Below, piece after piece: positions 24,031 to 56,498 of a stretch of DNA of 64,000 nt. The notes beneath the pieces were generated by a model, which had not been told where the DNA came from, ran no database searches, and saw only the letters and a program-made list of their open reading frames with translations. The DNA comes from a virus (lineage: Duplodnaviria; Caudoviricetes). A program made the position numbers and the translations under genes. The DNA is taken from IMG/VR virus record IMGVR_UViG_2568526014_000001, positions 5,958-69,957 of that record. The stretch is one strand, 5' to 3'. Positions within the stretch are counted from its first letter, which is position 1. Each line of letters begins with the position of its first letter.

Positions 24031-24187
24031 TGCGCATGCTCGGCAGCTGCTCCAATGGGCGGCCCCGAGTGGGGACCCTTTCGCGAGGGTGCCGGTGACT
24101 CCTACCGGTCTGCCAACCCTGCTCGGTGGCCGCCCACCCTTCATGGCAGGAGGGTGGTGGTCGATAGAACCGCTTAGGAGCCTTGTC

Positions 24188-41687: not shown

Positions 41688-42336
41688 AGATCCACGACCG
41701 CTAGGCGATGGTCCGTACTCGGACTACGCGTGGCCGGTCGAATCGAGTACTCCGTTCGAGCCATTCAGAGCTCCTGAAGAACTAGCGTTCGTGGATGTGT
41801 TCGAACAACGCCGCTCTACCCGAACGCTGTTGCCAGTCCCGCTAGACTTGACGGTTGGAGCGATGCTTTTTGGGCTAATGCCTCGGTTCTGGAAAGAGGG
41901 GGACGCGCTGAGGCGAAGTCGCCGCCCAACACTGTCGGCTGGCGCCCTTCATCCAATCTCGGTTTTGATATTCGACAACTCGGCTGTTTTTCGCATCAAC
42001 GCCGATTCATGCATGCTTGAGAAGCTCACATTTGCGCCCGAGGCAAGGGACGCATGGATCGATAAATGCCAACGGGTACTCCCTGGCTCGAACGGAGCAC
42101 TCCTAACGTTTGTCGCCGACATGGCTCGCCCAGCGAGCGCTTATGCGCATTGCGAGACGCTTGTTTGGCGAGACGCAGGCGCTATGCTTCAAACGCTTGC
42201 GCTCGTCGCGACATTGTTTGGACTCAGTTTCTGCCCGTTAGGTCTACTCGGCAGCGAGGTCGTTTCGGCCCTTCCATTGAGCGAACAGCTTCTTGCTGTC
42301 GGTGCGGCGGCAATCGGATTGCCAGTAGAAAACTGA
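41674..42336 (+). CDS. SagB-like nitroreductase/dehydrogenase
   Basis: RRSTR, RPTLSAGALHP, RDAGAMLQTL...GLSFCPLG; TTG start behind GAGGAG. Confidence 0.8.
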   Translation: MILTEDPRPLGDGPYSDYAWPVESSTPFEPFRAPEELAFVDVFEQRRSTRTLLPVPLDLTVGAMLFGLMPRFWKEGDALRRSRRPTLSAGALHPISVLIFDNSAVFRINADSCMLEKLTFAPEARDAWIDKCQRVLPGSNGALLTFVADMARPASAYAHCETLVWRDAGAMLQTLALVATLFGLSFCPLGLLGSEVVSALPLSEQLLAVGAAAIGLPVEN

Positions 42337-42351
42337 TCGGCGCCGGTTCGA

Positions 42352-43143
42352 TTAGTGAACACCGACGCTGTTGTCAACGAAGAGATCGAGCTGCTCGGAC
42401 TGCGTGTGCATCTTCCTCATGATGGCGGACAAACGGCGCATGTGATCCCACATAAGACCGTCGAGCGTGGCTGCCGAGGCGTCGATAGCACGCGCAAACG
42501 CGATGAAACGAGCCTCCAGTTGTCGATAGTGTGTCTCTGGCTGCCAATCCACCGGGAACAGGCCAAGGTGTTGGCCCACTCGAAGAATGTGAATGTCCAG
42601 AATCGCTACTTCGCTCTGCGGGCGCAGGTTGCGAACAATCCACGAAGCCGTCTTGAGACCGATCCCCGGCAACTCGTTTAGCTTGTCCCGAAAAGCAATG
42701 TCATTTTCGGGAGGAGTAAAGCCGGCCAGACGTTCAAGGCAACCGCTTAGATATCGTGCCTTCTGTCGGATAAATCGATATTTGCGTTCGCGACCTTGAA
42801 AGATGAACGGCTCACTCAACGCATTTTCGAGATCTTGCGCAGTGATACCAGCGTGTAGGAGGTTGCGCTCTCGAACGCGCGAATAAGCAGCCAACGCTAA
42901 CTCTGCTGGCATCCCCCAGCCCCCTAGCAGACACGCAGCCACTTCCTCCTCTAGCGAGCGACCGAGACGAAAATCGCAGAATGTGCCGGACTCAGTGTGT
43001 TGCCAAGCTTGCCCACACCAATATGCCGGAGTCATCAGCTCATCGAATGCTCCCCAGCAGATGCCAGGAAGTACTTCTTCATGCACTGCTGGTAGGGTCA
43101 ATTCGCGGACTTCGCCCGCGATGTGTGCGTACATGGTTTGCAT
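42352..43143 (-). CDS. 8-oxoguanine DNA glycosylase-like HhH protein
   Basis: LPGIGLKTASWIVRN...VAILDIHILR; YRF..QKA. Confidence 0.85.
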   Translation of the reverse strand: MQTMYAHIAGEVRELTLPAVHEEVLPGICWGAFDELMTPAYWCGQAWQHTESGTFCDFRLGRSLEEEVAACLLGGWGMPAELALAAYSRVRERNLLHAGITAQDLENALSEPFIFQGRERKYRFIRQKARYLSGCLERLAGFTPPENDIAFRDKLNELPGIGLKTASWIVRNLRPQSEVAILDIHILRVGQHLGLFPVDWQPETHYRQLEARFIAFARAIDASAATLDGLMWDHMRRLSAIMRKMHTQSEQLDLFVDNSVGVH

Positions 43144-43276
43144 CTGGACTGGTGCTTGTCTGATGATTTTTTAATGCGCAGCTACGTTCGCAGCTGCGAG
43201 GCGTCGCATCATACAGCAGTCCCGTCAACGATAGACGAATCCTCGCCTACCGGCAATGACTACGGGTGATCCAGAT

Positions 43277-43317
43277 GGAAAACCACGCCTGGATCCGAAC
43301 GTGCGCAGTTCTATCCT
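43277..43317 (+). promoter_or_regulatory. late promoter GGAAAA-N29-TATCCT
   Basis: Upstream of tail tube gene. Confidence 0.75.
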
Positions 43318-43352
43318 AGACGCCGATTAATTGCACATCGACAGGACACGCC

Positions 43353-43853
43353 ATGACCGTCTCGACCGCCTCCCTCCTGAAGGGGCACTACGACACGACC
43401 CGCGCGCTCGGCGCGAAGGTCATATCTTCCGACTTCGCCTTCGAGATCGAGGGCTTCGAGGCCAACTGGCTGCTGGCGAAGCAATGCCCGTGGCCCGAGA
43501 TCTCGCCGACCGGGGAAGTCGAAGTGCCCATGCCGCTCGGCGCCAACATGTGGCAGCCCCAGCAGATCAAGATCGCCCAGCAAGGTCAGATTTCCATGCA
43601 GGAGACGGTGGCCGGGAGCGTCGACAACATGCTCATCGACATCATCGCCCGCGGTGGCCTCTTCAACGCCAAGGTGTACGAGGGCACGCCGCAGAAGTAC
43701 CTGCGCGCCAAGCGGATCGTCGACTGCTTCATGCAGATGGACAACCCGGATCGTGACTGGGAGAACCGCTCGCAGGTGCTGGTGTTCTCCGGCACGCTGT
43801 TTTTCCACTATTTCGGCGAAACGCTGCCGGGGAACTCGGGCGATTACCGCTGA
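43353..43853 (+). CDS. tail tube protein (P1 BplB-like)
   Basis: LKGHY...GAKVISSDF...QISMQETVAG resembles BplB as I recall it. Confidence 0.7.
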   Translation: MTVSTASLLKGHYDTTRALGAKVISSDFAFEIEGFEANWLLAKQCPWPEISPTGEVEVPMPLGANMWQPQQIKIAQQGQISMQETVAGSVDNMLIDIIARGGLFNAKVYEGTPQKYLRAKRIVDCFMQMDNPDRDWENRSQVLVFSGTLFFHYFGETLPGNSGDYR

Positions 43854-44236
43854 TGGCGACGCTGGTCGAACTGGCGGAGCGCTTCGCGTCGCAGGAGCGG
43901 CCGGCCGGTAACCTGCTGGACGAGGGCACCTTGCTGGCGCAGTTGCTGGCCGCGACCCGGTTCTATGCCGGATTCGCGGCGATCCGCTCATTCGAGACCG
44001 CAACGCCGCCACGCGAGGTCGGCAAGGACACCGAGATCAACGATTCCGAATGGGCGCTGATCCGTCCATTGTTCATGCTCTACGTCGAGCGCGAGACGGC
44101 GCTCCAGCTGGAGGCCTCCAGAGGCTTGGGCATCGATCCGTTTGGCCGCTCGGCCAGCGAGGTCGCCGCGGAAATCGCGCAGATCGAGGCGGACATGCCG
44201 CGCAAGGCATTTTGCCAGCCGATCGTAACCGTCTAG
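43853..44236 (+). CDS. hypothetical virion protein
   Basis: Coupled ORF. Confidence 0.65.
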   Translation: MATLVELAERFASQERPAGNLLDEGTLLAQLLAATRFYAGFAAIRSFETATPPREVGKDTEINDSEWALIRPLFMLYVERETALQLEASRGLGIDPFGRSASEVAAEIAQIEADMPRKAFCQPIVTV

Positions 44237-44243
44237 ACGCGCC

Positions 44244-45143
44244 ATGATCCTGCTTCTGTCCGACGGCAACCAGATTCGTGGCGACTTGATCAAGTCCGCG
44301 ACACTGCGCTCAGATCTCGCCCCCATTCCGGTCACGCTGGAGGCGGAGATCCGGGCCGGCGACGACAGCCTGGAGAAACTGCTGAAGGAAGGGCAGACGC
44401 TCTCGACGGGCGGCGGTGACGTGCTGCGCATCGTCAAGTCGGTGCGTGTGGGCAGCCGGGTTGCTCAGGGCATACGCGAGATGGCGGCGTTCCGAGTTAT
44501 CGCGCTGCTCGATGCGTGCCAGGGTGCCGCGTACGTGCGCAGCCGCGCCATTCTCAAGGAGAGCGCAGCGCTATCGGCGATCTACCGAGCCGCCGGGGCG
44601 ACGATCAAAGCCGTCGATGCGGATTTCCCAGTGCCGCGGTTCTACTGCCCAGTGGGAGAGACGCCGACGTTTCAGATCGCGCGAGTCCTGCAGGAAGAGG
44701 GCGGCGTGGTTCGGTGGCGCAGGGGCAGGCTTCAGTTCGTCCGCTTGCCGGATTTGCTGAAGCAGACGCCCGTGATGACGTTGCCTGACGTGGCGGCGGA
44801 TGACATCGACAGCGGTTTCATGGAGCGGCATGAGGTGCCCTGGTTCTTCTCGCTGGACGCCGCCGGCGCGGCCATCTTCGGCAACCGCAGCAAGCCCCGC
44901 GTCGTGCGCTTCTCACCATTCAAGGATGTCCAGCGCCTGCGCAACATGACGCGCTGTCTCGTGCATCGCAAGACGCCGCGGATGGCCTACAACGGCAGCA
45001 TCGGTGCCGGTGATCTCGTCGCCCTTGCCAGCGGTGCCAAGCTGGTCGTCATCACGGCGGCGCATGCCTTCGTCTCGGGCACCGATGACGGCGGCGCGAG
45101 CGACACCTACAGCCGGTTGTGGCTGGGCAGCGTGGAGGAATGA
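44244..45143 (+). CDS. baseplate hub-like protein
   Basis: Precedes spike gene; LRSDLAPIPVTLE. Confidence 0.6.
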   Translation: MILLLSDGNQIRGDLIKSATLRSDLAPIPVTLEAEIRAGDDSLEKLLKEGQTLSTGGGDVLRIVKSVRVGSRVAQGIREMAAFRVIALLDACQGAAYVRSRAILKESAALSAIYRAAGATIKAVDADFPVPRFYCPVGETPTFQIARVLQEEGGVVRWRRGRLQFVRLPDLLKQTPVMTLPDVAADDIDSGFMERHEVPWFFSLDAAGAAIFGNRSKPRVVRFSPFKDVQRLRNMTRCLVHRKTPRMAYNGSIGAGDLVALASGAKLVVITAAHAFVSGTDDGGASDTYSRLWLGSVEE

Positions 45144-45760
45144 TGGAGTATGGCCTGATGCCTGGCCGCTATCCGGCCATCGTGCGCGGCTATCACGCAG
45201 GCCGCAGGACGTGCCGCGTCGAAATCCCCGGGCTGACCGATGGCGGTGACGTACTGCCCGAGGCGGAAATCGAATACCCCATCGGAGATAAATCCCGCGA
45301 CGGCGCGCATTCAACCGAGCTCGAGATCACGCTGGGCGATGCAGTGTGGATCGCGTTCATTGGAGGTGATCCGCGGTATCCGATTATCACCGGATACCGC
45401 AACCCGCAGGCCGGCAATGCGGTGGACTGGCGCCGCTGGCATCACGCGAACCTGGAGTTGCTGGCCGACACGCTGATGAACCTGATTGCAGGCGGCGACG
45501 TGCTGGTCAAATCGGGCTCGCACGTGACCGTGAAGGCGCCCAGTGTGACCGTCGATGCGGCCGAGACGACCTGCACGGGCAACCTGACAGTGGATGGCGG
45601 TCTGAACGTCAAGGGCGGTGGTAGCGGCGGCACGTCGAGGATTCACGGCAACTTCCAGATCACCGGGGGCGAACTGACGCACAACGGCAAGAACGTCGGC
45701 AGCGAGCACAAGCATCCTGGCGTGAAGCGTGGTGGCGGCACGACCGATGGCCCAACGTAA
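45143..45760 (+). CDS. baseplate spike (gpV/gp5-like)
   Basis: GDAVWIAFIGGDPRYPII OB fold; beta-helix; C-terminal HKHPGV metal-binding apex. Confidence 0.85.
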   Translation: MEYGLMPGRYPAIVRGYHAGRRTCRVEIPGLTDGGDVLPEAEIEYPIGDKSRDGAHSTELEITLGDAVWIAFIGGDPRYPIITGYRNPQAGNAVDWRRWHHANLELLADTLMNLIAGGDVLVKSGSHVTVKAPSVTVDAAETTCTGNLTVDGGLNVKGGGSGGTSRIHGNFQITGGELTHNGKNVGSEHKHPGVKRGGGTTDGPT

Positions 45761-45770
45761 AGGATCAACC

Positions 45771-46247
45771 ATGAAGAATCTGCTATTCAGTTTTCGCGAT
45801 CTCTCGGCAAAGTCGACCGCGGCGAAACAGGTCGTACGCTACTTCACGCGAGCGGGCGCCACCGTCGTTCAGCAGGACATCGTGTCCGGCCTGAAGCGCA
45901 CCTCGGGCGTGACCTACCGTGAGATGGATCTGACGTTCGCCGACTCGCAGCGCGTGACGTTTCGCATCAAGCAGACGGGCGACATCTTCCAGGTGCTGCT
46001 CAACGGCAGAGTCCTGCCGATCAAGAACCAGGACGATCACGTCCGGGCGATCGCGGAGATCGCACAGATGATGGATGCGGGACGCTCACGCTTCCAGAAA
46101 CTGTTGGCCGCGGCGAAGGTGCGGCCGCCGGTCGGCATTCGTACGGCGGTGCCGAAGATGGAGCAGGTCCTGGTCGAGAAGCGCGACGCGCTGAAAGCGG
46201 CCATCGCTGAGGTGCGCATGCAGATTGCCGCGCTGGATCTGACGTAG
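45771..46247 (+). CDS. Hdf/DarA_N-like protein
   Basis: KRTSGVTYREMDLTFADSQRVTFRIKQTGDIFQVLLNGRVLPIKN; adjacent to darA-like gene as in P1. Confidence 0.7.
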   Translation: MKNLLFSFRDLSAKSTAAKQVVRYFTRAGATVVQQDIVSGLKRTSGVTYREMDLTFADSQRVTFRIKQTGDIFQVLLNGRVLPIKNQDDHVRAIAEIAQMMDAGRSRFQKLLAAAKVRPPVGIRTAVPKMEQVLVEKRDALKAAIAEVRMQIAALDLT

Positions 46248-46281
46248 CAGGGTGGGCCCACGCTGCGTGAAGTCGTAGGGC

Positions 46282-46322
46282 GGAAAACACCGCACATTCC
46301 TCGTACCTCCGAGCCATACCAT
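46282..46322 (+). promoter_or_regulatory. late promoter GGAAAA-N29-TACCAT
   Basis: Upstream of darA-like gene. Confidence 0.75.
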
Positions 46323-46450
46323 TTCCTTGGCAGGCCGCATCAGCAGTGAGCGCGGCCGGAAAGGCTCGATCGCATGGTTTTCGCTTCGTTGCAGCAGATA
46401 GGCAAGTGCCACGCGTTCAGCCGATACCCTACCCAGGAAGGACTGAATTC

Positions 46451-49400
46451 GTGAGCCAGAAAGTGCAGTGGGGCAGCGACGCGCTGCCCGTCGACAGAAC
46501 CCTTGATCGAGTGCTTTACGAGATCCGATGCTCGGACGCGCTTGACGGCTTGCTGTTGGACTCGGTGAGCGAGCAGGAAGTCATCGAGGATGCAGAGGGG
46601 CTGCTGACGCTCGATGCGCTCGTGTCGCCCTATGCACGCTTGCCGCGCAAGATGGAGCTATTGCGCGTCGTCATGGAGCGGACCGGCCATGACGTCAAGC
46701 CGCTCGCGGTACAGATCACGCAGCCATTCAAGCAGCGCGGGGTTGCCAATGTCGCGGCGATCTTCGAGTTGTCCGACGGCCAGACCGTGAGCATCTACTT
46801 CCACAATCCGGACGTGACGCCGAACAAGATGGCGCCCGCCGACGAGGTGATCTCGTGGAAGTGGTTGCTGAACAAGCGCGACATCACGATCGTCGTCGCA
46901 CCCGAGCGCGGTATCGACCTGAACCTGCGCGATGTGGCGCGCCGGGTCATGCGGCTGGCCGAGAGGAATAGTGCGGCGTTCCAACGCGTCAACGCCAAGC
47001 GCGCCGAGCGCATGGAGAGCATCCGGTCGCTGAAAGGCGAAATCGCCGAGCTTGAGAACGAGCTGGACACGGCGCAGCACGATCTTGAGGTGGCGCATGT
47101 GGCGGCCGAGGACGCGGCGCGTGCGCGGGCACTCGCAGCAGCCCAGGCAGAACGCGATGAGCAGGAAGTGCGGCACGCGCCCGCTACGGACATCGAGGCG
47201 TCGCCCGGAGAGAGTGGGATCGACACTGACGAGCCCCATGAGCCCGAACAGCCCGAGCTCGATGTGCCAAACCAGCCGCACGAGCCGGGTGGTGATGGAG
47301 ATGCGGCGGCCGACGTCTCACATCCGAACACAGTGCTCACTGCTTCTGCTGAGCCGATCACCTTGCGGGGCAATGAACTCGGCGATTTTCCCGACACGGA
47401 CGAGGGGCGAACGGCTTTGCGAGCTGCAGCGAAGGACTTCTTGATGGCGATGCGCGGCGAGTGGATCGAATGCGCTGTCCTGAAGCAGTCGGTCGAAATT
47501 CGCAAGCGCGGCATCAATGAGACGATCCACTTCAGCGCCAGTCCGAAAAAGCTGAAGCTGATCCCGGCGATCAGGAGGTTGATCGAGACGGCGCAGGAGA
47601 GTGTCGAAGAGCCCAATCACAAAAGGGGCAGCAAGCCGGACGTGCGCCGGTACTTCCTCCTGAAAAATACGGTAGCGCTCGACGGAGAGATCGTGCGGGT
47701 CGCTGTGCTGATCGAAGAAGACAGTAACGGGCTCCTTCACTACGACCTGCTTGTGGATCGTTCAGAAACAAAAACGACGCTCGATTCCTCAAGCGCCGTC
47801 CTTGTGCCCGAACGTTCCCAAGACAACGATTCTTGGCATCCGGACGCTTCCAATATAGATAGCCAAGGTATCGATGTCAACGAGGCGGCTCTGGATTCCG
47901 TCGTCGAGGGTGCGCTGGTTCTCAACCTGTTCATCGATGGGGAAGAGAATGCGATTGCAAGCCGCGACGAAGCGTCAGCCGTCTCGGCAAAATCCCAAGT
48001 CGTTCAAGCGGACACCGAGGACGCAAGCTCGGTCGACGCGAAGATTCCGTTCCACAAGATGACGCCCGACCAGCAGCGCGCCGCGATGGCCGCCGAGAAG
48101 TCGGTGGTGTCGGACGAGCAGGTAGACCAGTTCCTGGCGGCCTGGGGTGGCCTCACGACGGACTACATGACGGCCGGCTATCGCGTGGCGGGCCGCATCG
48201 TGGCCGGGGCGCCCGATGCGTTCCGCGTCGAGGCTGGCAAGGTGGAAGCGGTTTCGCCCGATGGCATGACCACCACCGAGGCCACGGCCGACCAAGTGGA
48301 CGAGCTGCGCGACGCGATGCGGGGCGGCCAGGTGCAGGTGGAGCTGTATCGCCGCTGGGGCGGCAGCGTCGATGCCGCGAAGCCGATCAAGGTGCTGCAC
48401 CAGGCCACGGGCAAGTTCAAGCCGTTCGAGGGCAAGTTCGAGCTGCCGAGCGCGCCAGCCGCCTCCGACGACTTTGACCCGACGACGCCCGAGCAGCACG
48501 CGGGCGAGGTGGACGGAGAGGCAATGGCCGAGGCCGCACGCCGCGCGCGGGCGCCTGACGTGAATCCCGAGGCGGACGTGCCTGTCGTGGTCGCCGGCAA
48601 TGAGCTGGGAGATTTCCCCGATACCGAGGAAGGCAAGGTTGAGTTGCGCGCCGCTGCGCGTGAATATCTCCGCTCCTTGCGTGGCAAGCTCGTTTCTTGC
48701 CCGGCGCTGGGCAAGCCGGTGGAGATTCGCCAGCGTGGCATCAAGGAAACGTTGGCCTTCAGTGCCGATCCGCGTAAATTGAAGCTGATCGCGGCGATCG
48801 AGAAGATCATTGGTGCGGGCAAGAACCCGGTGCGCGAGGTAAACCACAAGCTCAGCGCAAAGCCCACCGTGGATGCGTACTACCACCTCGAATCGGCGGC
48901 TGTCCTGAATGGAAATCCGCTGGCGCTGCAACTGGTCATCGAGGAAGACAAGAGCGGGACGCTGTACTACGACTTTCTGATTGACCGGCGCGAGGCCAAA
49001 ACAAAAACGGCACTGGATAGCTCCAGCGCCGCTTCTGTGCCGCAATCGATCCCCGATCACAATTCGGGGGATGGCGACGAAAATACGTTAGCCGATGTTG
49101 ATAGCAGCGTCAAGACTCTGGATTCCGCCGACGATGAGGGTGGGGACATGGTGCTCAACCTGTTCATCGTCGGCGATGAGGCTGTCGATGTCCTCCCTGC
49201 TTCTGCCGCCGCGCAGGCCGACGCGGAGAATGCGCTGGGGGCGTCGGATGATGCTGCGAACGACGATGACGGCCTGTCCGACGACCCAAACAGCTCGAAC
49301 TACCGTTACCGCGACACCGGCTACATCGCCGACAGCCGCAAGGAGAAGGCGGCCAACCTGATCTCCAGCGCACGCAAGACTGGCCAGCGGCTGCGTGCGA

Positions 49401-51427
49401 GCGACATTGACTTCGACGCCATTGAGCACAACCCGCGCCAAGCGAAGGAAATGGTGGTCAAGGCCAACCTGTTCGGCAAGACTGGCTGGCAAGCGCTGCA
49501 GGATGCCGGCATGGAGCCGGCTGCCGGGTTCCTGATCGACAAGATCTACGCCAGCATCGCGCCGGCGCCGGCCGAAGACAGTCCCGGCGCACGCCGGGAT
49601 TACGCCATCGGTCTGGAGTCGATTCGCGATCGCCTGCAATCGGTCAAGACCGTGGCCCAGGTGCTGGATGTCGTGGCGGAGATCCATGACGAACTGAACG
49701 GGACGATGCTTCGCCCGGACGAGGCCGAGCAGTACGAGCTGCTGACCGAGCAGATGCGGGAGATGTCGACCCAGGTCCGGGCGCTGGACGGCTCCAGTAA
49801 CGCCGTCCATCAAGAGGCCCAGGAAGCACGCAGCGCCCTGTACACCGCCGAGCGGGCCTTGGAGCAGCGCAAGCGGCGCGGCTGGTCCATCAGCGTCGAG
49901 CAGCAGCGCACGGTGGACGAGGCGAAGACGCTTGCCGATGGGCTCTGGTCTCAGTTCGGTACGATTCGCGCGGACGTGAATCCGAAGATCGAGGCGCTGC
50001 GCGAGCAGATCACCGGTATGAGCCGCGAGCGTGAAGCTCTCGTGAAGGCGGCGCGGACGCGCAATCTGGTCGAAAACCAAACGACGCGTTCCTGGCTGAC
50101 ATTCGGAGAGCGCTTCGTGAAGCTCGTTCATTACCGGAGCTTCCGTGGCTCGGGTTCCTTCGCCGGGCATGTCACCAATGCCAAGGTCGGCAAGATCATG
50201 GATTGGTCATGGGCCGACAAGGAGCGGCCGACCGTGCCGAGGGATGCCACCAGGCAGGAGGTGAGCTTCCAACTGCGGGTGGCCGACCAGTTCGAGCGGC
50301 GGGGTGGCGCGCCCGTGGCGGTCAACTCGACGCAGGCGCTGAAGGACATGCTGGGCCTGCGCGACGTGCAGTCAGGCAATTGGGTGCTGAAAGACCCGAA
50401 CAGCGCCAAGTTCCATGTGGAGCAGACCGCTGCCGCGATGTCCGACCTGGCCGACATGCTCGGTATCGAGGTTTCCGCGCTAGGCCTCGGCGGCCGGCTC
50501 GGCATGGCCTTCGGCGCACGCGGAACGGGTGGCAAGAACGCGGCGCGGGCGCACTACGAGCCTGTTCATCGCGTTGTCAACCTGACCAAGATGGGCGGCG
50601 GTGGGTGCCTTGGCCATGAGCTGTTCCACGCCATCGACAATATCCTGCACGAACTGGTGAAGGAGGAACCCAGCGGAGGAAAGAACGATTTCGTGACGAT
50701 GAATCCAGATCTGCTGCCACCTGGCCCGATTCGAGACGCGGTGGTCGAGCTGCGCGAGGCCATGCTGACCGGTGACAACCGCCTGACCGAACGCATCGAC
50801 TTTTCCGAGCAGGACGTCCGGGTAGCGCATGTCAATGTCGACTCGCCACGCAATGCGCTGGCACGCGCCATCAAGGACGCTGGCGGCGCCGAAGCGGCGG
50901 TGCTGGCCGTGGATGCCTACTTCGGTAGTCGAAGCGATCCGCGCAGCCTGAAGAATCGCAAGAACTGGCGCAAGCTCGCCGCGGCCTTCTATGCGATGCC
51001 GGGTGAGACATCAGCACATCTGAAGACGGGACAGGCAGTGTCGAGCTTCGCCAAGGAGGCAGCCGTTCTGGACAACGGAAGCTACGGCAAGTATTGGTCG
51101 AGCCACGAAGAAATGGCCGCGCGCGGCTTCCAATCCTGGCTGGAAGACAAGCTCGCCAGTGCGGACCGCCGCAACGACTACTTGAGCGTCTACGCGGACA
51201 ATCAGTATCACGTCGACCCTCTGTTCGGGACCGAATGGAAGCCGTATCCCGAAGGTGACGAGCGTACCCGCATCAATGCGGCCTTCGACCGACTGTTCGG
51301 CGTGGTCGCCGAGGGGAAGGTGTTCGAGAAGGCGACGAGCAATCCCACGCTGTTGGACGCGATCTTCGGCAATGCCGCGACGGCAGAGAGCGAGGGCGCC
51401 ATGGCGCACCTCGGTTCAGGCAGTTAG
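46451..51427 (+). CDS. DarA-like polyvalent head protein (DarA_N, 2x LPD3, zincin/LPD1)
   Basis: FELSDGQTVSIYFHNPD...WKWLLNKRDIT; two GNELGDFPDT repeats; GHELFHAID; YWSSHEEMAARGFQ...YPEGDER; GTG start with RBS. Confidence 0.8.
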   Translation: MSQKVQWGSDALPVDRTLDRVLYEIRCSDALDGLLLDSVSEQEVIEDAEGLLTLDALVSPYARLPRKMELLRVVMERTGHDVKPLAVQITQPFKQRGVANVAAIFELSDGQTVSIYFHNPDVTPNKMAPADEVISWKWLLNKRDITIVVAPERGIDLNLRDVARRVMRLAERNSAAFQRVNAKRAERMESIRSLKGEIAELENELDTAQHDLEVAHVAAEDAARARALAAAQAERDEQEVRHAPATDIEASPGESGIDTDEPHEPEQPELDVPNQPHEPGGDGDAAADVSHPNTVLTASAEPITLRGNELGDFPDTDEGRTALRAAAKDFLMAMRGEWIECAVLKQSVEIRKRGINETIHFSASPKKLKLIPAIRRLIETAQESVEEPNHKRGSKPDVRRYFLLKNTVALDGEIVRVAVLIEEDSNGLLHYDLLVDRSETKTTLDSSSAVLVPERSQDNDSWHPDASNIDSQGIDVNEAALDSVVEGALVLNLFIDGEENAIASRDEASAVSAKSQVVQADTEDASSVDAKIPFHKMTPDQQRAAMAAEKSVVSDEQVDQFLAAWGGLTTDYMTAGYRVAGRIVAGAPDAFRVEAGKVEAVSPDGMTTTEATADQVDELRDAMRGGQVQVELYRRWGGSVDAAKPIKVLHQATGKFKPFEGKFELPSAPAASDDFDPTTPEQHAGEVDGEAMAEAARRARAPDVNPEADVPVVVAGNELGDFPDTEEGKVELRAAAREYLRSLRGKLVSCPALGKPVEIRQRGIKETLAFSADPRKLKLIAAIEKIIGAGKNPVREVNHKLSAKPTVDAYYHLESAAVLNGNPLALQLVIEEDKSGTLYYDFLIDRREAKTKTALDSSSAASVPQSIPDHNSGDGDENTLADVDSSVKTLDSADDEGGDMVLNLFIVGDEAVDVLPASAAAQADAENALGASDDAANDDDGLSDDPNSSNYRYRDTGYIADSRKEKAANLISSARKTGQRLRASDIDFDAIEHNPRQAKEMVVKANLFGKTGWQALQDAGMEPAAGFLIDKIYASIAPAPAEDSPGARRDYAIGLESIRDRLQSVKTVAQVLDVVAEIHDELNGTMLRPDEAEQYELLTEQMREMSTQVRALDGSSNAVHQEAQEARSALYTAERALEQRKRRGWSISVEQQRTVDEAKTLADGLWSQFGTIRADVNPKIEALREQITGMSREREALVKAARTRNLVENQTTRSWLTFGERFVKLVHYRSFRGSGSFAGHVTNAKVGKIMDWSWADKERPTVPRDATRQEVSFQLRVADQFERRGGAPVAVNSTQALKDMLGLRDVQSGNWVLKDPNSAKFHVEQTAAAMSDLADMLGIEVSALGLGGRLGMAFGARGTGGKNAARAHYEPVHRVVNLTKMGGGGCLGHELFHAIDNILHELVKEEPSGGKNDFVTMNPDLLPPGPIRDAVVELREAMLTGDNRLTERIDFSEQDVRVAHVNVDSPRNALARAIKDAGGAEAAVLAVDAYFGSRSDPRSLKNRKNWRKLAAAFYAMPGETSAHLKTGQAVSSFAKEAAVLDNGSYGKYWSSHEEMAARGFQSWLEDKLASADRRNDYLSVYADNQYHVDPLFGTEWKPYPEGDERTRINAAFDRLFGVVAEGKVFEKATSNPTLLDAIFGNAATAESEGAMAHLGSGS
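47764..47880 (-). ncRNA. putative antisense sRNA unit 1 (sigma70 promoter, hairpin, terminator) inside darA-like CDS
   Basis: TTGACA-17-TATATT (47880-47852); 7-nt-loop hairpin 47818-47836; terminator stem 47776-47797 plus U-tract. Confidence 0.6.
48997..49113 (-). ncRNA. putative antisense sRNA unit 2 inside darA-like CDS
   Basis: TTGACG-17-TAACGT (49113-49085); hairpin 49051-49069; terminator stem 49008-49031 plus U-tract. Confidence 0.6.
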
Positions 51428-51428
51428 C

Positions 51429-51469
51429 GGAAAATCGATCGAAGTCGGCCATTGCGGGAAGCCTACCCT
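51429..51469 (+). promoter_or_regulatory. late promoter GGAAAA-N29-TACCCT (leaderless portal mRNA)
   Basis: ATG starts 7 nt after the end of the -10, no RBS. Confidence 0.75.
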
Positions 51470-51475
51470 CCCAGC

Positions 51476-53071
51476 ATGGCCGATACACAACACCCTTCCA
51501 ACCCGAGCAAGCCGGGTTTCCTGGCGCGCTTCGGCTTGTCCCGAAAGCGATGGACTTCCACGAACGTCGAGCCGGTCAAGGAAATCGACCAGTCCGACAC
51601 GTTTCTCTACGGCGCCGGCACCACCACGGTCGCGTCGCTGCTCGGCTCGGGCAGTCGCGGCGCGCGGGCACGGCAGATCATCTACGAAAAGTGGTCCTTG
51701 ATGGAGGGCAGCCCCATCGTCTCCACCGCGGTGGGGCTGCTCGTGACCGCCGCGCTCGGTGGCCACGAAACCAGCGGCGACCTCGTGTTCATCGAGCAGA
51801 CCGCCGCCGCCAAGAAGAACCGGAGCCTGTCGGCGATCAGCCAGGAAATCGCGGCCGACCTGACGCCACTCTTCAACCGGGTGGCGCATCAGATGGCCTA
51901 TACCGGGTCGACGTTTGGAGACGCCTATGCGCGGATCTACGCGAATTCGCGAGGGGTGAACGATCTGTACGTCGACGAGATGGTGCGGCCACCGCTGGTG
52001 CAGCCCTACGAGCGCGGCAGTCGCACGGTGGGATTCGCCGTCTATACGGGCGAACGCAATTTCGAGCGCCTGGACGTCTCGCAGATGGCGCGCTTGAAGA
52101 TGCCGCGCACGCAATGGGTGCCGCAGTATGGCGTGGTTGAAAAGGCGCTTCGTCTGGCGATCACCGAGGACAACCTCGACAACCTGCCGATCATGCCCAG
52201 CATGGCGGGCGGATCGCTGCTCTACAACGCCGAGGAGGCATACGACAACCTGACCGCATCGCTCTTGGGCTTGGTGGGACAGCGCTGGATGGATTCCATC
52301 GACGAGCAGATGGTGGCCGTCAACCTCGAGTCCATGACGCTGGAGCAGCAGAAGCGGTTCGTTGACTCCCTCACGGACATGCTCAAGGCGTCGAAAAGCT
52401 ACGCCGAGCAAGCCGTGAAGCGGGGCCGACCTGTGATGGAGCGGATCCGCCACCTCATCCCGGTGTTCGGCGAGAAGCAACTGACGACCGTGGGGCCGGC
52501 CAACGGCGGCCAGCCCGGCCGGGCCGGCAGCATCAGCATCGAGGATGTGTTGCTGCACGCCCGGTTGCTGTCGGGGACCATCGGCGTCGATCTGTCCATG
52601 ATCGGATTCGCCGACCAAATGTCGGGCGGCCTCGGCGAGGGTGGCTTCTTTCGTACCTCGGCGCAGGCCGCGGAGCGTGCCCGGATCATCCGGGTGGCGC
52701 TCGCCGAGTTCTTCAACCACGTCATCGACATTCACACCATGCGTCGCTACGGCATGGTGTTCAACCCGTCCGATCGCCCCTGGGCCATCAACTTCTTCGG
52801 CTCGATCTCGGCGCTGGAGGCCGAGAAGCAGCGTACCCGTACCGATTCGATGAATGCCGGCATGCTGCTCGCGCAGGGCATGCAGATGATGCGCGAGATG
52901 GGCGCGAGCAAGGAGGTGATGATCGAGTTCCTGACCAAGGCCATGATGCTCGACGAGGACCAGGCGAAGCTGTACGCGACGATCGTCGATGCGAAACCGC
53001 CAGACGGCGGCCGAGATCCCAGTAGCGGCGGGTTCGGCGCGATGGAGGATCGTGAAGGGGAGCCGCTATGA
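51476..53071 (+). CDS. portal protein (P1 Prt-like)
   Basis: IYEKWSLMEGSPIVSTAV, GDAYARIY, GGSLL, GFADQMSGGLGEGGFFRTSAQAA. Confidence 0.8.
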   Translation: MADTQHPSNPSKPGFLARFGLSRKRWTSTNVEPVKEIDQSDTFLYGAGTTTVASLLGSGSRGARARQIIYEKWSLMEGSPIVSTAVGLLVTAALGGHETSGDLVFIEQTAAAKKNRSLSAISQEIAADLTPLFNRVAHQMAYTGSTFGDAYARIYANSRGVNDLYVDEMVRPPLVQPYERGSRTVGFAVYTGERNFERLDVSQMARLKMPRTQWVPQYGVVEKALRLAITEDNLDNLPIMPSMAGGSLLYNAEEAYDNLTASLLGLVGQRWMDSIDEQMVAVNLESMTLEQQKRFVDSLTDMLKASKSYAEQAVKRGRPVMERIRHLIPVFGEKQLTTVGPANGGQPGRAGSISIEDVLLHARLLSGTIGVDLSMIGFADQMSGGLGEGGFFRTSAQAAERARIIRVALAEFFNHVIDIHTMRRYGMVFNPSDRPWAINFFGSISALEAEKQRTRTDSMNAGMLLAQGMQMMREMGASKEVMIEFLTKAMMLDEDQAKLYATIVDAKPPDGGRDPSSGGFGAMEDREGEPL

Positions 53072-53973
53072 GCCTCTACAACAACATCGCCGACACGCTG
53101 TCGAGCCGCGGCTTGATCGACTCGGTTCGCTCCGGCCTGACCACCGGTATCGGCGGCGTGACCGATGCGGCGGCCGGCTTCCTGGGCGGCGGCAAGCTCG
53201 CGCAGGCTGTCACGGGCATGGGTCAGAGCATGGGCGTCAACGCCGGCATGAACCTGGTGAACAAGTACGTGCCGATTCAGGCACAGCGCGCCGCGAATGT
53301 GGGGGCCGGCGCCTTGGGCGATCTGCTGAACGGTGACTGGAACGCCGCCGGCATGCGTCTGCTCGACTCCGGGCTGCTGAATGATCTGCTGCCCGGCATG
53401 AGCGGCGTTGCCGCGCAGACGATGTTCTGGGGCTCGCCGACGCCGCTGTTCGGCGGGATCAGTCCCACCGAAGCCCGTCAGATCTATGACCAGATGCGCG
53501 GTGAGCGCTTGGCCAAGCGAAACCTGTGGCTGATCGAGGCGTCGAGCCGCTTGGCCGGCGACATGTCGCAGCGCTTCAATCTCTTTGCCACGGAAGTCGA
53601 GTATTCCCCGTTCATCGTGACTGGTGACAAGCGTCGTGTCGGCGGCGCGGTGATCGACGTCGTTCAGGGCGCCGAGCCCGTGGAGCTGCGCATCACGACG
53701 CTCGATGATCAGAACGGTTCCTTGAAGCGGTGGTTCGCGGCCCACCACGGCGCTGCTGCCGCACGTGACGGCACGGTCGGCGTTCCCGACTCGTTCGCGA
53801 TCACGTTCAAGGTCGTCCATGCGTTCATCACGCGAGGTAGCAACCGAGGGGGATACGAAGACATCGGCCTGTTTCGTCCGGCCAATCTCGATCTGAGTCT
53901 GTCGCGCCGGGAGGACGGACTGTCGGAGATGCACATGACGTTCTCGCAACTTGACACTTTTATGAGGCCGTGA
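53068..53973 (+). CDS. tail tube-like/baseplate protein with Gly-rich N-terminus
   Basis: Coupled to portal and tape-measure genes. Confidence 0.55.
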   Translation: MSLYNNIADTLSSRGLIDSVRSGLTTGIGGVTDAAAGFLGGGKLAQAVTGMGQSMGVNAGMNLVNKYVPIQAQRAANVGAGALGDLLNGDWNAAGMRLLDSGLLNDLLPGMSGVAAQTMFWGSPTPLFGGISPTEARQIYDQMRGERLAKRNLWLIEASSRLAGDMSQRFNLFATEVEYSPFIVTGDKRRVGGAVIDVVQGAEPVELRITTLDDQNGSLKRWFAAHHGAAAARDGTVGVPDSFAITFKVVHAFITRGSNRGGYEDIGLFRPANLDLSLSRREDGLSEMHMTFSQLDTFMRP

Positions 53974-56498
53974 TGGCAACGCTCAAACATGATGCCCAGG
54001 GGTTTCTGGTGGGTGATGCCATCGATCTGGAAAGGAGCAGATCGTTGGCAGCGATGCGTAACGACGTGCGGGCGATCCGGGCCGGTGTCGCGGGTATCGC
54101 GTCGTTGCTGGCCCATGCGCAGACCGTGCCGCGAGTTGGGTCACGGGCCGCTGTTGTGCCGCAGCCAGCCCCACGCGTGGATTCGGGGCGCAGACCTGCG
54201 AGTGCTCAACCTCCGCAGCGGCCTTCCGCGGTGCCAGTCGCGTCCGAGGTGCGTGCGGCACGCACGATGACGCATCACGCGGTAGCCCAGCCGCGGAATC
54301 GTGACAGTCGCGGACGATTCATCGGCACTTCGGGACAGTCGACGTCCCAACCAGTACGGCACCCACGTACTGCCCCCGGCGCTGGTGCGGGAGTCGATGA
54401 CGAAGAGGAAGGCAGACTGCACGATTTCGCGGAGCGGCTAGTCGGCGCGATCAAGGAGTCGAGCGTCGGTATGGAGGAGGCGGACCCGGCCATCAAAGCC
54501 TTTCGGGAGGTCGCGCAGCCGATGGCGCGTGGCTACGAACTGCTGAGCGGTGGCGACAAGCAGAAGCGGCAGGAGGGGTGGCTACGACGTATCTACGCGT
54601 CGCTGACGGGTTTCCGCAAAGACGAGAGCGCCTTCAGCAAGGCGGCCGCCAAGCGCCTCAAATCCCTCGACGAGAAGCCGGCCGCCAAAGCAGGCGGCGA
54701 TTCAGGTTGGCTTGGCACTCTGGGGGCCATGCTCAAACGGATTCCCGGCGTAGGCACATTGACGGCCGGTGCCGGGAAATTCCTGTCCGGTGGCGGTGGT
54801 CTCCTGGCAGGCGTGGCGCGAGGCGTGCTTGGATTCGGCAAGGGAATGCTGCGCCGTCTGCCGTTCATCGGATCGCTGCTCAGTGGGATCGGCGCCGCGT
54901 CCGAGATTTACGATACCGAGACCGACGATGCGATGTCGCGTCGCGAGAAAGACAAGCACGATGGCGCCGCCGTTGGGGGATTCGCCGGCACGGTAGGCGG
55001 GATGTTCGCTGGTGCGAAGGTTGGGGCGCTGCTCGGTAGTTTCGCCGGCCCGATTGGCACCGCTATCGGTGGTGCTGTGGGTGGTGCGGCCGGCATGTTC
55101 TTTGGCGACCAGGCAGGCCAGATCATTGGCGACAAAGTCGGCGAGTGGGTGACGGATCTACGTGAGGCCGACATCCCCGGCAAGATCACCGCCGCTTGGG
55201 ATGCAACAACTGAAACGTTGAGAAAAGCGTGGGACAGCGCACTCGCCCGGTTGTCCGAGGGATGGCAGAGCGTCAAGAAAGCCGGGCAGAAAGCTGGCAA
55301 CTGGGTCGCGACGCAGGGAGACGCCGCCAACGATTTCGTCAAGGACAAGACCGGCGTCGACATCAAGGGCGCTGCGTCGCGTGTTTGGTCGTCGGTGTCG
55401 AAGACAGTCAAGGATTTCGGCACCGTCGTTGAGCGCAAGGCGGTGAACGGGATCAAGCATGGCGCGCAATGGGCCGCGACGCATTCAACGGCCGGGCGTG
55501 GTGTCTCGACGCTCTTGCATGGCGCGCAGTCAATAGGCGGCGGCATTGCGGCTCGATGGCGCGACGCCAAACGCTATCTGCTCGGCGCTTCCGAAAAGGC
55601 GGGAGTGGACGCTGGTACGGTCGCGAAGATCGCCAACTTCGAGAGCGGGTTTAATGCGGAGGCGGCGCCGATCCGAAAGGACGGCACCCGCATTTCGTCG
55701 GCGCACGGCTACGGCCAGTTCCTCGACAGTACGTGGACGGACATGCTCAACAAGTACGGCGCGAAGTATGGCGTGGCGGGAGCGGGCCGGTTGACGCGGG
55801 ATCAGGCGGCGAAGTACCGGAGCGACAAGACGGTCCAGGCCGGCATGCTGGCCGAATTCACGAGAGAGAACATCGAGAAGGGGCGCAAATATGGTGGCGC
55901 CGACGATGATGCGAACGTCTACGCCTTCCACAATCTCGGCGACAGGGACGCCAAGAGCCTGTTGAAGGGGATGCAACGCGATCCCAGTATGACCGTCCGC
56001 GATGCGCTGTTGCAGGGTGCGAGGAACGACAAGCAGCGCGCTCGCATTGAGGCCGTCATATCGGGCAACAAGAGTCTGTATGGCGACGGCAGTGTGACTG
56101 CCGCCGAGGCGTACGCCCGCATGGGGAAGATGATGCGACGAGGCGATGCCTTCGCTTCGGATGTCCGGCAGGCACAGGACAAGATCTCGGTTGCGGACGT
56201 CGGGGCGAGTCGCAGTCCGAAGCCGGCCGCGCCGGCCGTCGTCGCCGCGGCGCCGATGCCCGTTGCGCCGGTGGGCATCGCGGCACCGGGGATGCCAATC
56301 GTGGCGTCGGCTCGTGTGCCGGCGGTACCGAGTGTGCCAGCTGTGCCGGCCGTGGCCGAAGCGCCAAGGATCGATGTGCCGCTTGCGTCCGGCGACCGCC
56401 ACAAGCCCGTGGTCGTTACGCCAGCGCCGTCGGACGTCAATCAAGACCTGCGCGAGCGTGGCATCGCGCATATCGTGACTGGCGGATTGGGGGCGTAG
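53973..56498 (+). CDS. tape measure / injection protein with lytic transglycosylase domain (P1 Sit-like)
   Basis: Gly/Ala-rich hydrophobic repeats; IANFESGFN...SSAHGYGQFLDSTW...YAFHNLG. Confidence 0.8.
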   Translation: MATLKHDAQGFLVGDAIDLERSRSLAAMRNDVRAIRAGVAGIASLLAHAQTVPRVGSRAAVVPQPAPRVDSGRRPASAQPPQRPSAVPVASEVRAARTMTHHAVAQPRNRDSRGRFIGTSGQSTSQPVRHPRTAPGAGAGVDDEEEGRLHDFAERLVGAIKESSVGMEEADPAIKAFREVAQPMARGYELLSGGDKQKRQEGWLRRIYASLTGFRKDESAFSKAAAKRLKSLDEKPAAKAGGDSGWLGTLGAMLKRIPGVGTLTAGAGKFLSGGGGLLAGVARGVLGFGKGMLRRLPFIGSLLSGIGAASEIYDTETDDAMSRREKDKHDGAAVGGFAGTVGGMFAGAKVGALLGSFAGPIGTAIGGAVGGAAGMFFGDQAGQIIGDKVGEWVTDLREADIPGKITAAWDATTETLRKAWDSALARLSEGWQSVKKAGQKAGNWVATQGDAANDFVKDKTGVDIKGAASRVWSSVSKTVKDFGTVVERKAVNGIKHGAQWAATHSTAGRGVSTLLHGAQSIGGGIAARWRDAKRYLLGASEKAGVDAGTVAKIANFESGFNAEAAPIRKDGTRISSAHGYGQFLDSTWTDMLNKYGAKYGVAGAGRLTRDQAAKYRSDKTVQAGMLAEFTRENIEKGRKYGGADDDANVYAFHNLGDRDAKSLLKGMQRDPSMTVRDALLQGARNDKQRARIEAVISGNKSLYGDGSVTAAEAYARMGKMMRRGDAFASDVRQAQDKISVADVGASRSPKPAAPAVVAAAPMPVAPVGIAAPGMPIVASARVPAVPSVPAVPAVAEAPRIDVPLASGDRHKPVVVTPAPSDVNQDLRERGIAHIVTGGLGA

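Follow-up and report, generated by a model that had tools for sequence, protein, structure and literature searches.

Probable antisense small RNA genes in the LPD3 linkers of a phage DarA-like polyvalent protein gene

Cis-antisense RNAs of phages are already known. The lambda OOP RNA is ~77 nt long, has a constitutive promoter and an intrinsic terminator of its own, is convergent with a protein-coding region whose 3′ part it overlaps, and it is thought to act via duplex formation and RNase III. In the type I toxin-antitoxin systems of Bacillus prophages, such as txpA/RatA and bsrG/SR4, a convergent antisense RNA overlaps the toxin gene at its 3′ end, and the toxins are small hydrophobic peptides. 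The type III antitoxin ToxI is a series of tandem direct repeats that precedes the toxin on the same strand and that the toxin itself processes. The 64-kb stretch of phage DNA analyzed here (the window) itself contains a P1/P7 C4 antisense RNA (RF01695) at 24051-24141 on the plus strand, the only Rfam family that passed threshold there. Here we describe two further elements, A and B, which we believe are probably real, independently transcribed, structured antisense sRNA genes of ~80 nt and members of a previously undescribed RNA family located in LPD3 linkers. A full-text literature search found no paper describing an LPD3-linker RNA gene.

Both elements lie within a plus-strand gene at 46346..51427 whose open reading frame and translation give a DarA-like polyvalent protein of 1693 aa. 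Pfam analysis of the protein returned DarA_N (9.5e-45), LPD3 (4.5e-35, in two stretches) and LPD1 (8.8e-18), with LPD3 (PF18798) at 120.7 bits, above the curated cut-off of 27. PHROGs assignments place the gene in a late virion operon with an Hdf-like gene and a portal gene on either side. The folded domain of LPD3 module 1 (approximately aa 343-472) is encoded at 47372..47761 (+) and that of module 2 (approximately aa 752-883, best Pfam stretch aa 764-875) at 48599..48994 (+), and the two form an internal repeat with 47% identity. Linker 1, SETKTTLDSSSAVLVPERSQDNDSWHPDASNIDSQGIDVNEAALDS...VLNLFIDGEE, follows at 47762..47965 (+), as delimited by codon display and protein alignment, and linker 2, EAKTKTALDSSSAASVPQSIPDHNSGDGDENTLADVDSSVKTLDS...MVLNLFIVGDE, at 48995..49198 (+), as delimited by codon display. 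An AlphaFold model of module 2, with an input alignment of 12 sequences and a pTM of 0.57, had pLDDT of 83-94 across most of residues 11-130 and below 50 at model residues 137-194 (linker 2, ~40 overall), indicating that linker 2 is predicted to be disordered; linker 1 is the equivalent linker of module 1. By this model, A and B both sit in a predicted-disordered linker behind an LPD3 domain.

sRNA gene A occupies 47764..47880 on the minus strand and was recovered from the sequence, by a promoter scan (11/12), by covariance model R1 (91 bits) and by a strict terminator scan. The -35 box TTGACA (47880-47875) and the -10 box TATATT (47857-47852) are separated by a 17-nt spacer, and the predicted RNA extends from 47845 to the end of the U-tract at 47764. 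It comprises a P1 stem (47845-47841 with 47810-47804), the P2 hairpin CCAAGA-AUCGUUG-UCUUGG (47836-47818), the sequence GGCACA (~47809-47804) and a terminator stem P3 formed by ACGGCGCUUGA/UCGAGCGUCGU (47799-47774) and followed by UUUUUGUUU, all on the minus strand. sRNA gene B (48997..49113, minus strand; R1 98.3 bits and the strict terminator scan) has a -35 box TTGACG (49113-49108), again a 17-nt spacer, and a -10 box TAACGT (49090-49085), which together score 8/12 and fall under the scan threshold. Its predicted RNA (49078-48997, with the U-tract running to 48997) carries the P2 hairpin CCCCGA-AUUGUGA-UCGGGG (49069-49051), GGCACA and a P3 stem (49031-49008) followed by UUUUUGUUUU. The initial annotation had described a promoter, a 6-bp hairpin with a 7-nt loop, GGCACA and a terminator with U-tract in each unit, and every listed element was present in the sequence of both. 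As read from the sequence, the shared anatomy is a predicted host-type sigma70 promoter with a 17-nt spacer, P1 enclosing a 6-bp P2, a short ACA-rich single-stranded spacer, and P3 with its U-tract. The number of RNA gene copies in the window equals the number of LPD3 modules (two).

A lone promoter-like site is not above chance, as one was found where 2.4 were expected in 14 kb. The strict terminator scan, which asked for stems of ≥7 bp that include ≥4 G-C pairs, loops of 3-8 nt and ≥7 T in 9, returned exactly two loci on both strands of the 64-kb window, which are the terminators of A and B; these terminators were not among the predictions of a standard terminator scan. When codons were shuffled with the protein held fixed, copy A was distinguished from the shuffles in both folding energy (MFE p=0.010) and promoter (p=0.004), and copy B in folding energy (MFE z=-3.84, p<0.002). 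Rfam 15 gave a best E of 1.1 over 47300-49300, with no family at the gathering threshold. GenBank phages and PLSDB plasmids were searched with 47354-49200 by nucleotide BLAST, and phages with LPD3 module 2 by tblastn; neither search yielded a match.

The decisive evidence is comparative: layout, pairing and promoter are kept in diverged homologues. The arrangement of promoter, hairpin and terminator was retained on the minus strands of homologues with 35-57% protein identity and 37-65% GC. Covariance model R1, built from the RNA part only, was applied to 41 loci found by protein similarity and matched the strand antisense to the LPD3 gene in 29 of them at E<=0.01, and in the window and the 70-kb record it matched at sites A and B only. 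Three of the 12 loci lacking an R1 match are truncated or weak homologues and most of the others have a linker of a different type, type C. Inspection by eye of type C linkers (L017, L020, L023-L028 and the second unit of L029) revealed promoter boxes together with a hairpin that has a CGGC loop and contains G.U pairs, and no clear terminator. A sigma70-like site was present on the linker minus strand of 26/32 modules, with a spacer of 17 nt in all 26, compared to 2/32 for the linker plus strand and 119/4276 (2.8%) for background windows. Conservation of promoter and terminator behind LPD3 homologues, on which the initial annotation had staked its proposal, was found.

Stem sequences differ between the two copies, and the initial annotation had remarked that pairing is nonetheless kept. 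This holds across the family. Among 16 sequences, 94.5% of stem cells were paired, as against 74.7% in shuffles (0/500 reaching the observed value) and 29-39% in slid controls, where the alignment used (A5) was fitted to the covariance model and inflates pairing somewhat; double changes occurred at 13/23 pairs in these sequences. RNAalifold reported double changes at 10/28 pairs. P3 and the U-tract behind it are conserved, and P3 shows G-C to G.U as well as double changes. Type B, a two-hairpin variant represented by 8 sequences, has 42 pairs of which 9 are doubly compensated, including a case in which both changes are synonymous (Ile ATC>ATT together with Ala GCG>GCA). Compensation was also achieved through amino-acid replacement, as in P>Q with G>W and PD..SG>TN..SV. 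R1 applied to 151 genomes of one bacterial family, with 30 candidates per genome scored and hence weak on prevalence, matched in the seed genome only. A pattern search gave 43 matches, 15 of which came from one metagenome and shared CCCCGAATAGTCATCGGGG; the three examined (L045, L048 and L062) had no R1 match, the group had no LPD3 directly in front, and we set it aside as chance or a different element.

We considered if these features could have no function at the nucleic-acid level, with the similarity arising from duplication of a protein motif or from recent phage recombination at linkers. In protein alignment the linker peptide motifs are kept in 35 proteins, the genetic code makes the P-D...S-G motif (CCNGA...TCNGG) self-complementary, KTKT imposes an A-rich sense strand, and with the protein fixed the null rate of promoter-like sites reaches 0.44 in some loci. 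Against this, codon resampling with the protein fixed placed the minus-strand MFE below the null at p<=0.018 in 12/13 elements, the exception being L021, which was no more stable than its codon shuffles, and it is also opposed by the compensatory changes, both synonymous and amino-acid-replacing, by the strand bias and by the read pile described below. We disfavor this explanation and regard it as extremely improbable. For the most part, the linker motifs KTKT, ALDSSSA, PDHNSG, D-V-N and N-I are what results when the U-tract, P3, P2 and both promoter boxes are read in antisense. We rejected an antisense promoter driving a minus-strand protein gene, since extended open stretches occur downstream only in high-GC loci and show no conservation, and we dropped a programmed frameshift at the A5 run before the hairpin, for which the two window copies, as read, have alternative frames that end differently.

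The hairpins could also be features of the plus strand, acting as mRNA stability, processing or translational-pause elements with no antisense RNA being made. Most stem pairs are Watson-Crick and would form on both strands, and the plus-strand MFE was below the codon-shuffle null (p<0.05) in 7/13 elements, though only in those 7. However, the G.U pairs of the A and B stems form on the minus strand only, as the initial annotation had pointed out for the terminator stems, and family-wide there were 35 G.U cells and 8 A.C cells, which favors a minus-strand RNA. A plus-strand element also leaves unexplained the -35 and -10 boxes with their exact 17-nt spacer (26/32) and the minus-strand U-tract after P3, and it does not fit the stand-alone copies, which lie outside any mRNA coding region. 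We consider a plus-strand feature very unlikely.

RNA-seq bears on both of these points. Reads at copy A formed a one-directional pile at 47704-47865 with a depth of ~70 in X12 and X13, two of the four raw RNA-seq runs; the other two, X9 and X10, were without any reads and so provide no test. Read starts at 47837 and 47835 recurred in X12 and X13, as did a start at 47832, tabulated for X13, and 47866-48405 had zero reads. These starts fall downstream of the predicted one (~47845) by 8-13 nt, and the 101-nt reads extend ~30 nt beyond the copy A terminator. No reproducible pile was found at copy B in X12 and X13. The pile at A is a discrete and reproducible RNA, for which we infer a minus-strand origin in vivo, its strand depending on the library convention. 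If X12 and X13 are of the dUTP type, the pile would instead be a plus-strand mRNA fragment ending at the P2 hairpin. Together with the conserved promoter, structure and terminator and the compensatory changes, the discrete RNA at A supports the central proposal of the initial annotation, that a hidden antisense sRNA gene lies directly behind each LPD3 domain. We take the earlier observation as confirmed and its interpretation as partly supported.

Two full members of the family, L046 and L059, are intergenic. They scored 66.1 and 64.5 bits with R1, have compensatory terminator stems, and carry promoters (ATGACA or GTGACA, 17 nt, TAGACT or TACACT) and a strong terminator each. All six frames have stops around the element, and the proviruses, which are rated 100% complete, yielded no LPD3 candidate; Rfam gave 0 matches on either. 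The stand-alone copies adjoin DNA methyltransferase, integrase and HNH genes, and a frame reading PDHYSGHRL is still present at them. Because family members occur in LPD3-free proviruses, the RNA does not need LPD3.

The most likely function, by analogy with described systems and held tentatively as to mechanism, is OOP-like or type-I-like cis-antisense silencing of the late gene. Host RNA polymerase would make the RNA while the late operon is off, the RNA would pair with any mRNA of the polyvalent protein immediately 3′ of the segments that encode LPD3, and the duplex would then be cut or degraded, as for lambda OOP or the 3′-overlapping type I antitoxin RNAs, with the outcome that RelE-like LPD3 modules would be kept silent in lysogens. 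Three observations count against silencing in cis. The target sites fall 1.4 and 2.7 kb into an ORF of 5 kb, where pairing cannot block initiation; the two intergenic members reside in LPD3-free proviruses and thus have no such antisense target; and a perfectly complementary antisense RNA needs no invariant loop bases.

The latter two points bring in an alternative that we judge unlikely, although it is the stronger of those concerning a minus-strand RNA: an autonomous, trans-acting phage sRNA, directed at another transcript or serving as a decoy for a host factor or defense, that was buried in the polyvalent gene when its neighbors joined across an intergenic sRNA gene and whose antisense position is incidental. 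L046 and L059 are complete units with their own promoter and terminator in proviruses without LPD3. Across 32 family hairpins the P2 loop has the consensus A-U-N-G-U-N-R (A1 28/32, U2 32/32, G4 31/32), and its bases are nearly invariant at third codon positions (A1 and G4) and variable at first codon positions; A1, U2, G4 and U5 show hardly any variation, even where a codon change would be synonymous. On the other hand, in 20/20 pattern matches beside an LPD3 match the RNA was antisense and 39-186 nt behind the domain, and in the window the copies equal the LPD3 modules. The stand-alone examples number only two and, given the persisting PDHYSGHRL frame, could be remnants of deleted modules.

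Cis-silencing has also to be weighed against a role of the RNA as an antitoxin or decoy for LPD3, which would bind, or be cut by, a RelE/BECR-like RNase domain and neutralize it in the producing cell or lysogen. Tight physical linkage of RNA gene and LPD3 across many domain architectures, the invariant Arg, Lys and Tyr residues of LPD3 and the conserved hairpin loop are in favor of such a role, as are the best structural matches of the domain. Membership of the BECR or RelE/ParE fold is recognized by an N-terminal helix and a core sheet of 4-5 strands that superpose on known members. VIA-align of the LPD3 model returned the CdiA-CT structures 7m5f_C (Z 5.9, rmsd 3.1, 83 aligned) and 6cp9_A (Z 5.8), RelE 1wmi_C (Z 5.7), and ParE, BrnT, YoeB, YafQ and colicin D (Z 4.5-5.4), all of them below Z 8, where a match may mean only a common arrangement of helices and strands; Foldseek against the PDB gave 0 matches at E<=0.001. 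The resemblance of the modeled domain to RelE, ParE, CdiA-CT and colicin D is therefore suggestive, a consistent list at Z 4.5-5.9 that remains below the safe level. Iyer et al. 2017 (PMC5512222) place LPD3 with the LPDs of which the function is called elusive, give the BECR assignment to PBECR domains and not to LPD3, and do not class LPD3 as likely enzymatic, which does not agree with the statement of the initial annotation that LPD3 is a predicted BECR RNase.

The proposed tRNA mimicry did not stand either. In the 7-nt loop of an anticodon arm, U33 takes position 2, the anticodon spans positions 3-5 and a purine (position 37) takes position 6, and in the family GUN falls at loop positions 4-6, one out of register, with U at position 6 in 11/32. 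A YGUN motif had been seen in both loops, but GU is preceded by A or G in 11/32, indicating that YGUN is not conserved. The match to the tRNA-His anticodon arises from a GUG dictated by the His codon CAC of D-H-N-S-G, to which it is antisense, and ARAGORN found 0 tRNA-like genes in the window. With family members also present in phages without LPD3, we consider an antitoxin or decoy for LPD3 quite improbable.

If cis-antisense genes of this kind are real, they have consequences for how such loci are read. A conserved structured RNA gene with promoter and terminator in a disordered interdomain linker of a virion-delivered polyvalent protein appears to be undescribed, as does the occurrence of one RNA copy per LPD3 domain and conservation across phages of 37 to 65% GC; the RNA family was also found in dozens of distantly related phages. 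Conserved protein linker motifs could be shadows of antisense RNA genes, and annotation pipelines that mask coding regions miss such RNAs. Phage anti-defense cassettes would gain a regulatory or effector layer, and LPD3, a domain of unknown function, would gain a physically linked RNA as a testable partner. More speculatively, and with considerable doubt on our part, polyvalent genes might be two-stranded effector modules, in which a RelE/BECR-like domain is encoded in sense and a linker RNA in antisense (an antitoxin or decoy, or an anti-defense effector of its own), with a stand-alone gene beside methyltransferases, domain and RNA shuffling as one unit, and the LPD3 linker motifs as footprints of the RNA genes.

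The gene that holds A and B, with DarA_N, LPD3 and LPD1, is typical of the phage-type polyvalent proteins in PMC5512222, in the main text of which the word antisense has 0 occurrences and a linker RNA gene is not described. Like C4, the elements would be phage regulatory antisense RNAs, but C4 lies in an immunity region and acts on ant/icd mRNA, and RF01695 does not match the LPD3-linker elements. They share with type III systems, the idea behind the earlier proposal, an RNA encoded next to a putative RNase toxin; unlike ToxI, A and B are each a single structured RNA, encoded behind the domain on the opposite strand, with a promoter and terminator of their own. Their likeness to type I systems is that of a convergent, prophage-encoded antisense RNA overlapping the 3′ end of a putatively toxic region, whereas the overlapped product is not a hydrophobic peptide of less than ~60 aa but a linker that follows an alpha/beta domain, soluble and ~130 aa long, within a virion protein of 1693 aa. 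OOP has no sequence or Rfam relationship to A and B, yet, as judged from the sequence, these resemble it in having their own promoter opposite the overlapped gene and a terminator that would give a short transcript. OOP overlaps the end of the small cII gene and an intergenic spacer, while A and B lie wholly inside a 5-kb ORF, one for each LPD3 module.

The DarA-like polyvalent ORF (46346-51427, plus strand) lies in a provirus of 61% GC and encodes a 1693-aa product with the Pfam domains DarA_N, LPD3 in two stretches, and LPD1; its closest named protein is a Burkholderia plantarii "LPD1 domain-containing protein" (97% identity). PHROGs assignments place an Hdf-like antirestriction gene (45729-46247) immediately upstream and a portal gene (51452-53071) immediately downstream, and the polyvalent ORF between them is part of a late, virion-associated "dar"-type operon. 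Upstream of this operon, nucleoside deoxyribosyltransferase-like and QueC-like genes (39871-41687, plus strand; PHROGs) may form a DNA-modification, deazaguanine-type, anti-restriction cluster. The window also carries a C4 antisense RNA (24051-24141, plus strand; Rfam RF01695, 57.8 bits). C4 is the immunity RNA of P1/P7-type phages, which indicates that the prophage has a P1-like immI region.

The initial annotation had proposed a hidden antisense sRNA gene behind each LPD3 repeat, and every element that it listed, from promoter to U-tract, was found in place on the minus strand behind both modules, in copy A (47764-47880) and copy B (48997-49113). Our promoter scan gave 11/12 for the copy A promoter and 8/12, under the scan threshold, for that of copy B. 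A built-in terminator scan of 42000-56000 listed neither terminator, and a stricter scan of our own over the whole window and both strands returned exactly two terminator loci, copy A and copy B; the built-in scan, having missed the two strongest stem-plus-U-tract sites of the window, possibly has a blind spot. The LPD3 modules (aa 343-540 and aa 752-951) are 47% identical to each other, and the sRNA units fall outside the folded domain, in the stretch C-terminal to it. AlphaFold, run on an alignment of 12 sequences, predicts most of residues 11-130 with a pLDDT of 83-94 and residues 137-200 with one of about 40, so the stretch behind LPD3 looks like a disordered linker.

Linkers of 35 proteins have in common the peptide motifs [KE]TKTALDSSSA, (S/P)PDHNSG, D-V-N, LDS and VLNLFIEGE, and most of these can be read as the antisense of the RNA unit: the K-T-K-T codons (AAA ACA AAA ACG) oppose the U-tract, A-L-D-S-S-S-A the terminator stem, P-D-H-N-S-G the small 6-bp hairpin P2, D-V-N the -35 box and N-I the -10 box. 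The genetic code itself makes P-D...S-G (CCNGA...TCNGG) self-complementary, a trivial point, and the RNA could in principle be a by-product of such a protein motif. We regard this as highly improbable. Pairing is kept where residues are swapped, as in copy A (P>Q with G>W) and in two homologous loci, L032 and L014, where PD..SG is replaced by TN..SV; codons are frozen (ACA AAA ACG for T-K-T, TCC TCA AGC for S-S-S) in lineages that are divergent elsewhere. When codons were resampled from each gene's own usage with the protein fixed (500 resamples per element), minus-strand folding energy was below the null in 12 of 13 elements (p ≤ 0.018; the exception was L021), that of the plus strand passed p < 0.05 in just 7 of 13, and the best promoter score exceeded the null in 8 of 13 (p < 0.05).

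Homologous modules were gathered by protein similarity only (28 viral, 1 genome and 12 metagenome loci, spanning about 35-57% protein identity and 37-65% GC), and the layout of the units is kept on their minus strands. RNAalifold on 11 elements gave three helices, a 5′ stem P1 enclosing P2 and the terminator stem P3, with double compensatory changes in 10 of 28 pairs; the GGCACA singled out by the initial annotation is the 3′ half of P1. A covariance model built from the RNA part with the promoter excluded (R1) matched the strand opposite the LPD3 gene in 29 of 41 loci (E ≤ 0.01), missing L017, L020, L022-L028, L037, L043 and L044, three of which are truncated or weak homologues. Within the window it matched the two sites only (98.3 and 91 bits, with plus-strand echoes of 24-27 bits), and no further copy was found in the full 70-kb record. 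Among 16 model-aligned elements, 94.5% of stem cells were paired against 74.7% in shuffles (0/500 as high) and 29-39% in slid controls, the first figure being somewhat inflated by the fit of this alignment to R1, and both sides had changed in 13 of 23 pairs. Homologous linkers also carry a second architecture, type B, of two long hairpins, each with the same cap, plus a long-range terminator stem; of the 42 pairs in its 8 sequences, 9 are doubly compensated, for example GGCGAUG/CAUCGCC to GGCAAUG/CAUUGCC through two synonymous changes. In L029 (about 1890-2290, minus strand) two tandem promoter-plus-hairpin units share one linker, one with the layout of the window units (type A) and one of type C (TTGAAA-17-TATACT, hairpin CCCGAGUGA-CGGC-UCAUUUGGG). 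Type C also occurs, with no obvious terminator, in L017, L020 and L023-L028.

A structure that acts in the mRNA only is very unlikely. In the stems, 35 cells hold G.U, a pair possible only in a minus-strand RNA, versus 8 that hold A.C, which would pair only if the RNA came from the plus strand; G.U exceeded A.C in 13 of 16 sequences, with the reverse in L015 and ties in two. Sites matching the promoter criteria occurred on the minus strand of the linker in 26 of 32 modules, all 26 with a 17-nt spacer, as compared with 2 of 32 on the linkers' plus strand and 119 of 4276 (2.8%) same-length background windows. This count is taken without near-duplicates (L004, L025, L033, L036), truncated or weak loci (L037, L041, L043, L044), and loci whose protein anchors were not located (L038, L040, L042). 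We looked for a conserved minus-strand ORF downstream of the units and found none. We conclude that a conserved unit of host-type promoter boxes, structured RNA and terminator lies antisense to the linker.

The gene is present as contigs in eight RNA runs from two studies, and raw reads of four runs were mapped to 47650-49250. From X12 and X13, which are single-end and belong to one study, 153 and 187 reads mapped; X9 and X10 gave 0 and hence provide no test. In both X12 and X13 a pile covers copy A (47704-47865) with all reads in one direction ("on -"), a depth of 70 and 69 in bin 47758-47811, and recurring read starts at 47837 and 47835 (16-19 reads each); a start at 47832 (10 reads) was tabulated for X13. 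No read in either direction fell in 47866-48405 in either run. Both runs thus place a discrete RNA end 15-20 nt past the copy A -10 box, with nothing upstream of the promoter. Depending on library strand convention, the pile represents the minus-strand RNA predicted here or, alternatively, a fragment of the plus strand that stops at P2. Outside the pile, "+" versus "-" reads (summed bins) numbered about 75 versus 60 in X12 and 164 versus 43 in X13, an excess that weakly points to background late mRNA in a sense-reading library. The 101-nt reads of the pile extend about 30 nt past the terminator; since size selection would remove an RNA as short as about 75 nt, the pile would then consist of read-through molecules. 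At copy B no reproducible pile was seen in X12 or X13. In both runs 13-25% of reads are variant at 47765 (G>C) and 47769 (C>A), inside or just after the sRNA A U-tract, which would mean E>Q and T>K in the protein; that strain may have a second allele or copy, or the RNA may be heterogeneous. A smaller "on -" cluster (48622-48783, depth 7-15 in both runs, common start 48761 in X12) lies inside LPD3 module 2, where no promoter-like site was seen. These cultures contain a discrete RNA at copy A while the gene body is almost silent. Our tentative reading is that the RNA is a cis-antisense silencer of the polyvalent-gene mRNA: it would pair with the message just after each LPD3 segment, and the duplex would trigger cleavage or decay.

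An autonomous RNA acting in trans is also conceivable, if rather unlikely, and is favored by stand-alone copies and by loop bases (A-U-N-G-U-N-R) that are near-invariant at synonymous sites. A hairpin-motif search of viral contigs returned 43 stretches, 20 of them 39-186 nt behind an LPD3 match and always on the opposite strand, many on contigs already collected, and 23 with no LPD3 match nearby. R1 was run on 17 of the 43, and two of these, L046 (66.1 bits) and L059 (64.5 bits), are complete members of the family: their terminator stems carry compensatory changes, and each has its own -35 and -10 boxes separated by 17 nt. Their surroundings have stops in all six frames, their neighbors are DNA methyltransferase, integrase and HNH genes, and no LPD3 candidate was found in either provirus (both rated 100% complete), indicating that the RNA can exist as an ordinary intergenic gene. 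Fifteen viral contigs of one metagenome (L045, L048, L056, L057, L061, L062, L065, L070, L071, L072, L074, L077, L080, L081, L086) share a hairpin CCCCGA-AUAGUCA-UCGGGG followed by an A-run/T-run structure. R1, run on three of them (L045, L048, L062), had no hit; the hairpin is not directly preceded by LPD3, and in one record an LPD3-like stretch scores weakly (24 bits) at a distance of 1.5 kb. This is a related but distinct element, or chance.

The stand-alone copies argue that the RNA functions as an independent unit and weaken any model that requires LPD3, including the proposal of the initial annotation that the RNA is an antitoxin or decoy directed at LPD3, which we consider improbable. 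The GUG taken there for a tRNA-His anticodon in the loop is nothing more than a His codon read in antisense. The premise, given there as established, of a predicted BECR fold for LPD3 is absent from the accessible text of Iyer et al. 2017 (PMC5512222), which describes LPDs as domains whose functions "remain elusive", does not place LPD3 among the potentially enzymatic ones, and applies BECR to the PBECR families. The best structural matches of the LPD3 model are almost all RelE/ParE/BECR-type toxins, namely CdiA-CT (Z 5.9 and 5.8), RelE (Z 5.7), ParE, BrnT, YoeB and YafQ (about Z 5) and colicin D (Z 4.5), and Foldseek with the same model gave 0 hits at E ≤ 0.001. With all Z scores below 8, the predicted toxin-like fold is only suggestive by the calibration of the structure tool.

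No family in Rfam 15 matches the RNA, and no description of such an RNA was found among the papers listed by full-text searches on LPD3/polyvalent proteins, darA/P1 antisense RNA, or Burkholderia prophage sRNAs. Phage cis-antisense sRNAs are a known kind of element, and the same logic of duplex cleavage or decay underlies lambda OOP and 3′-overlapping type I antitoxin RNAs; what appears to be new here is an RNA gene that is written inside an interdomain linker, travels with the protein domain and dictates the latter's "conserved" peptide motifs.
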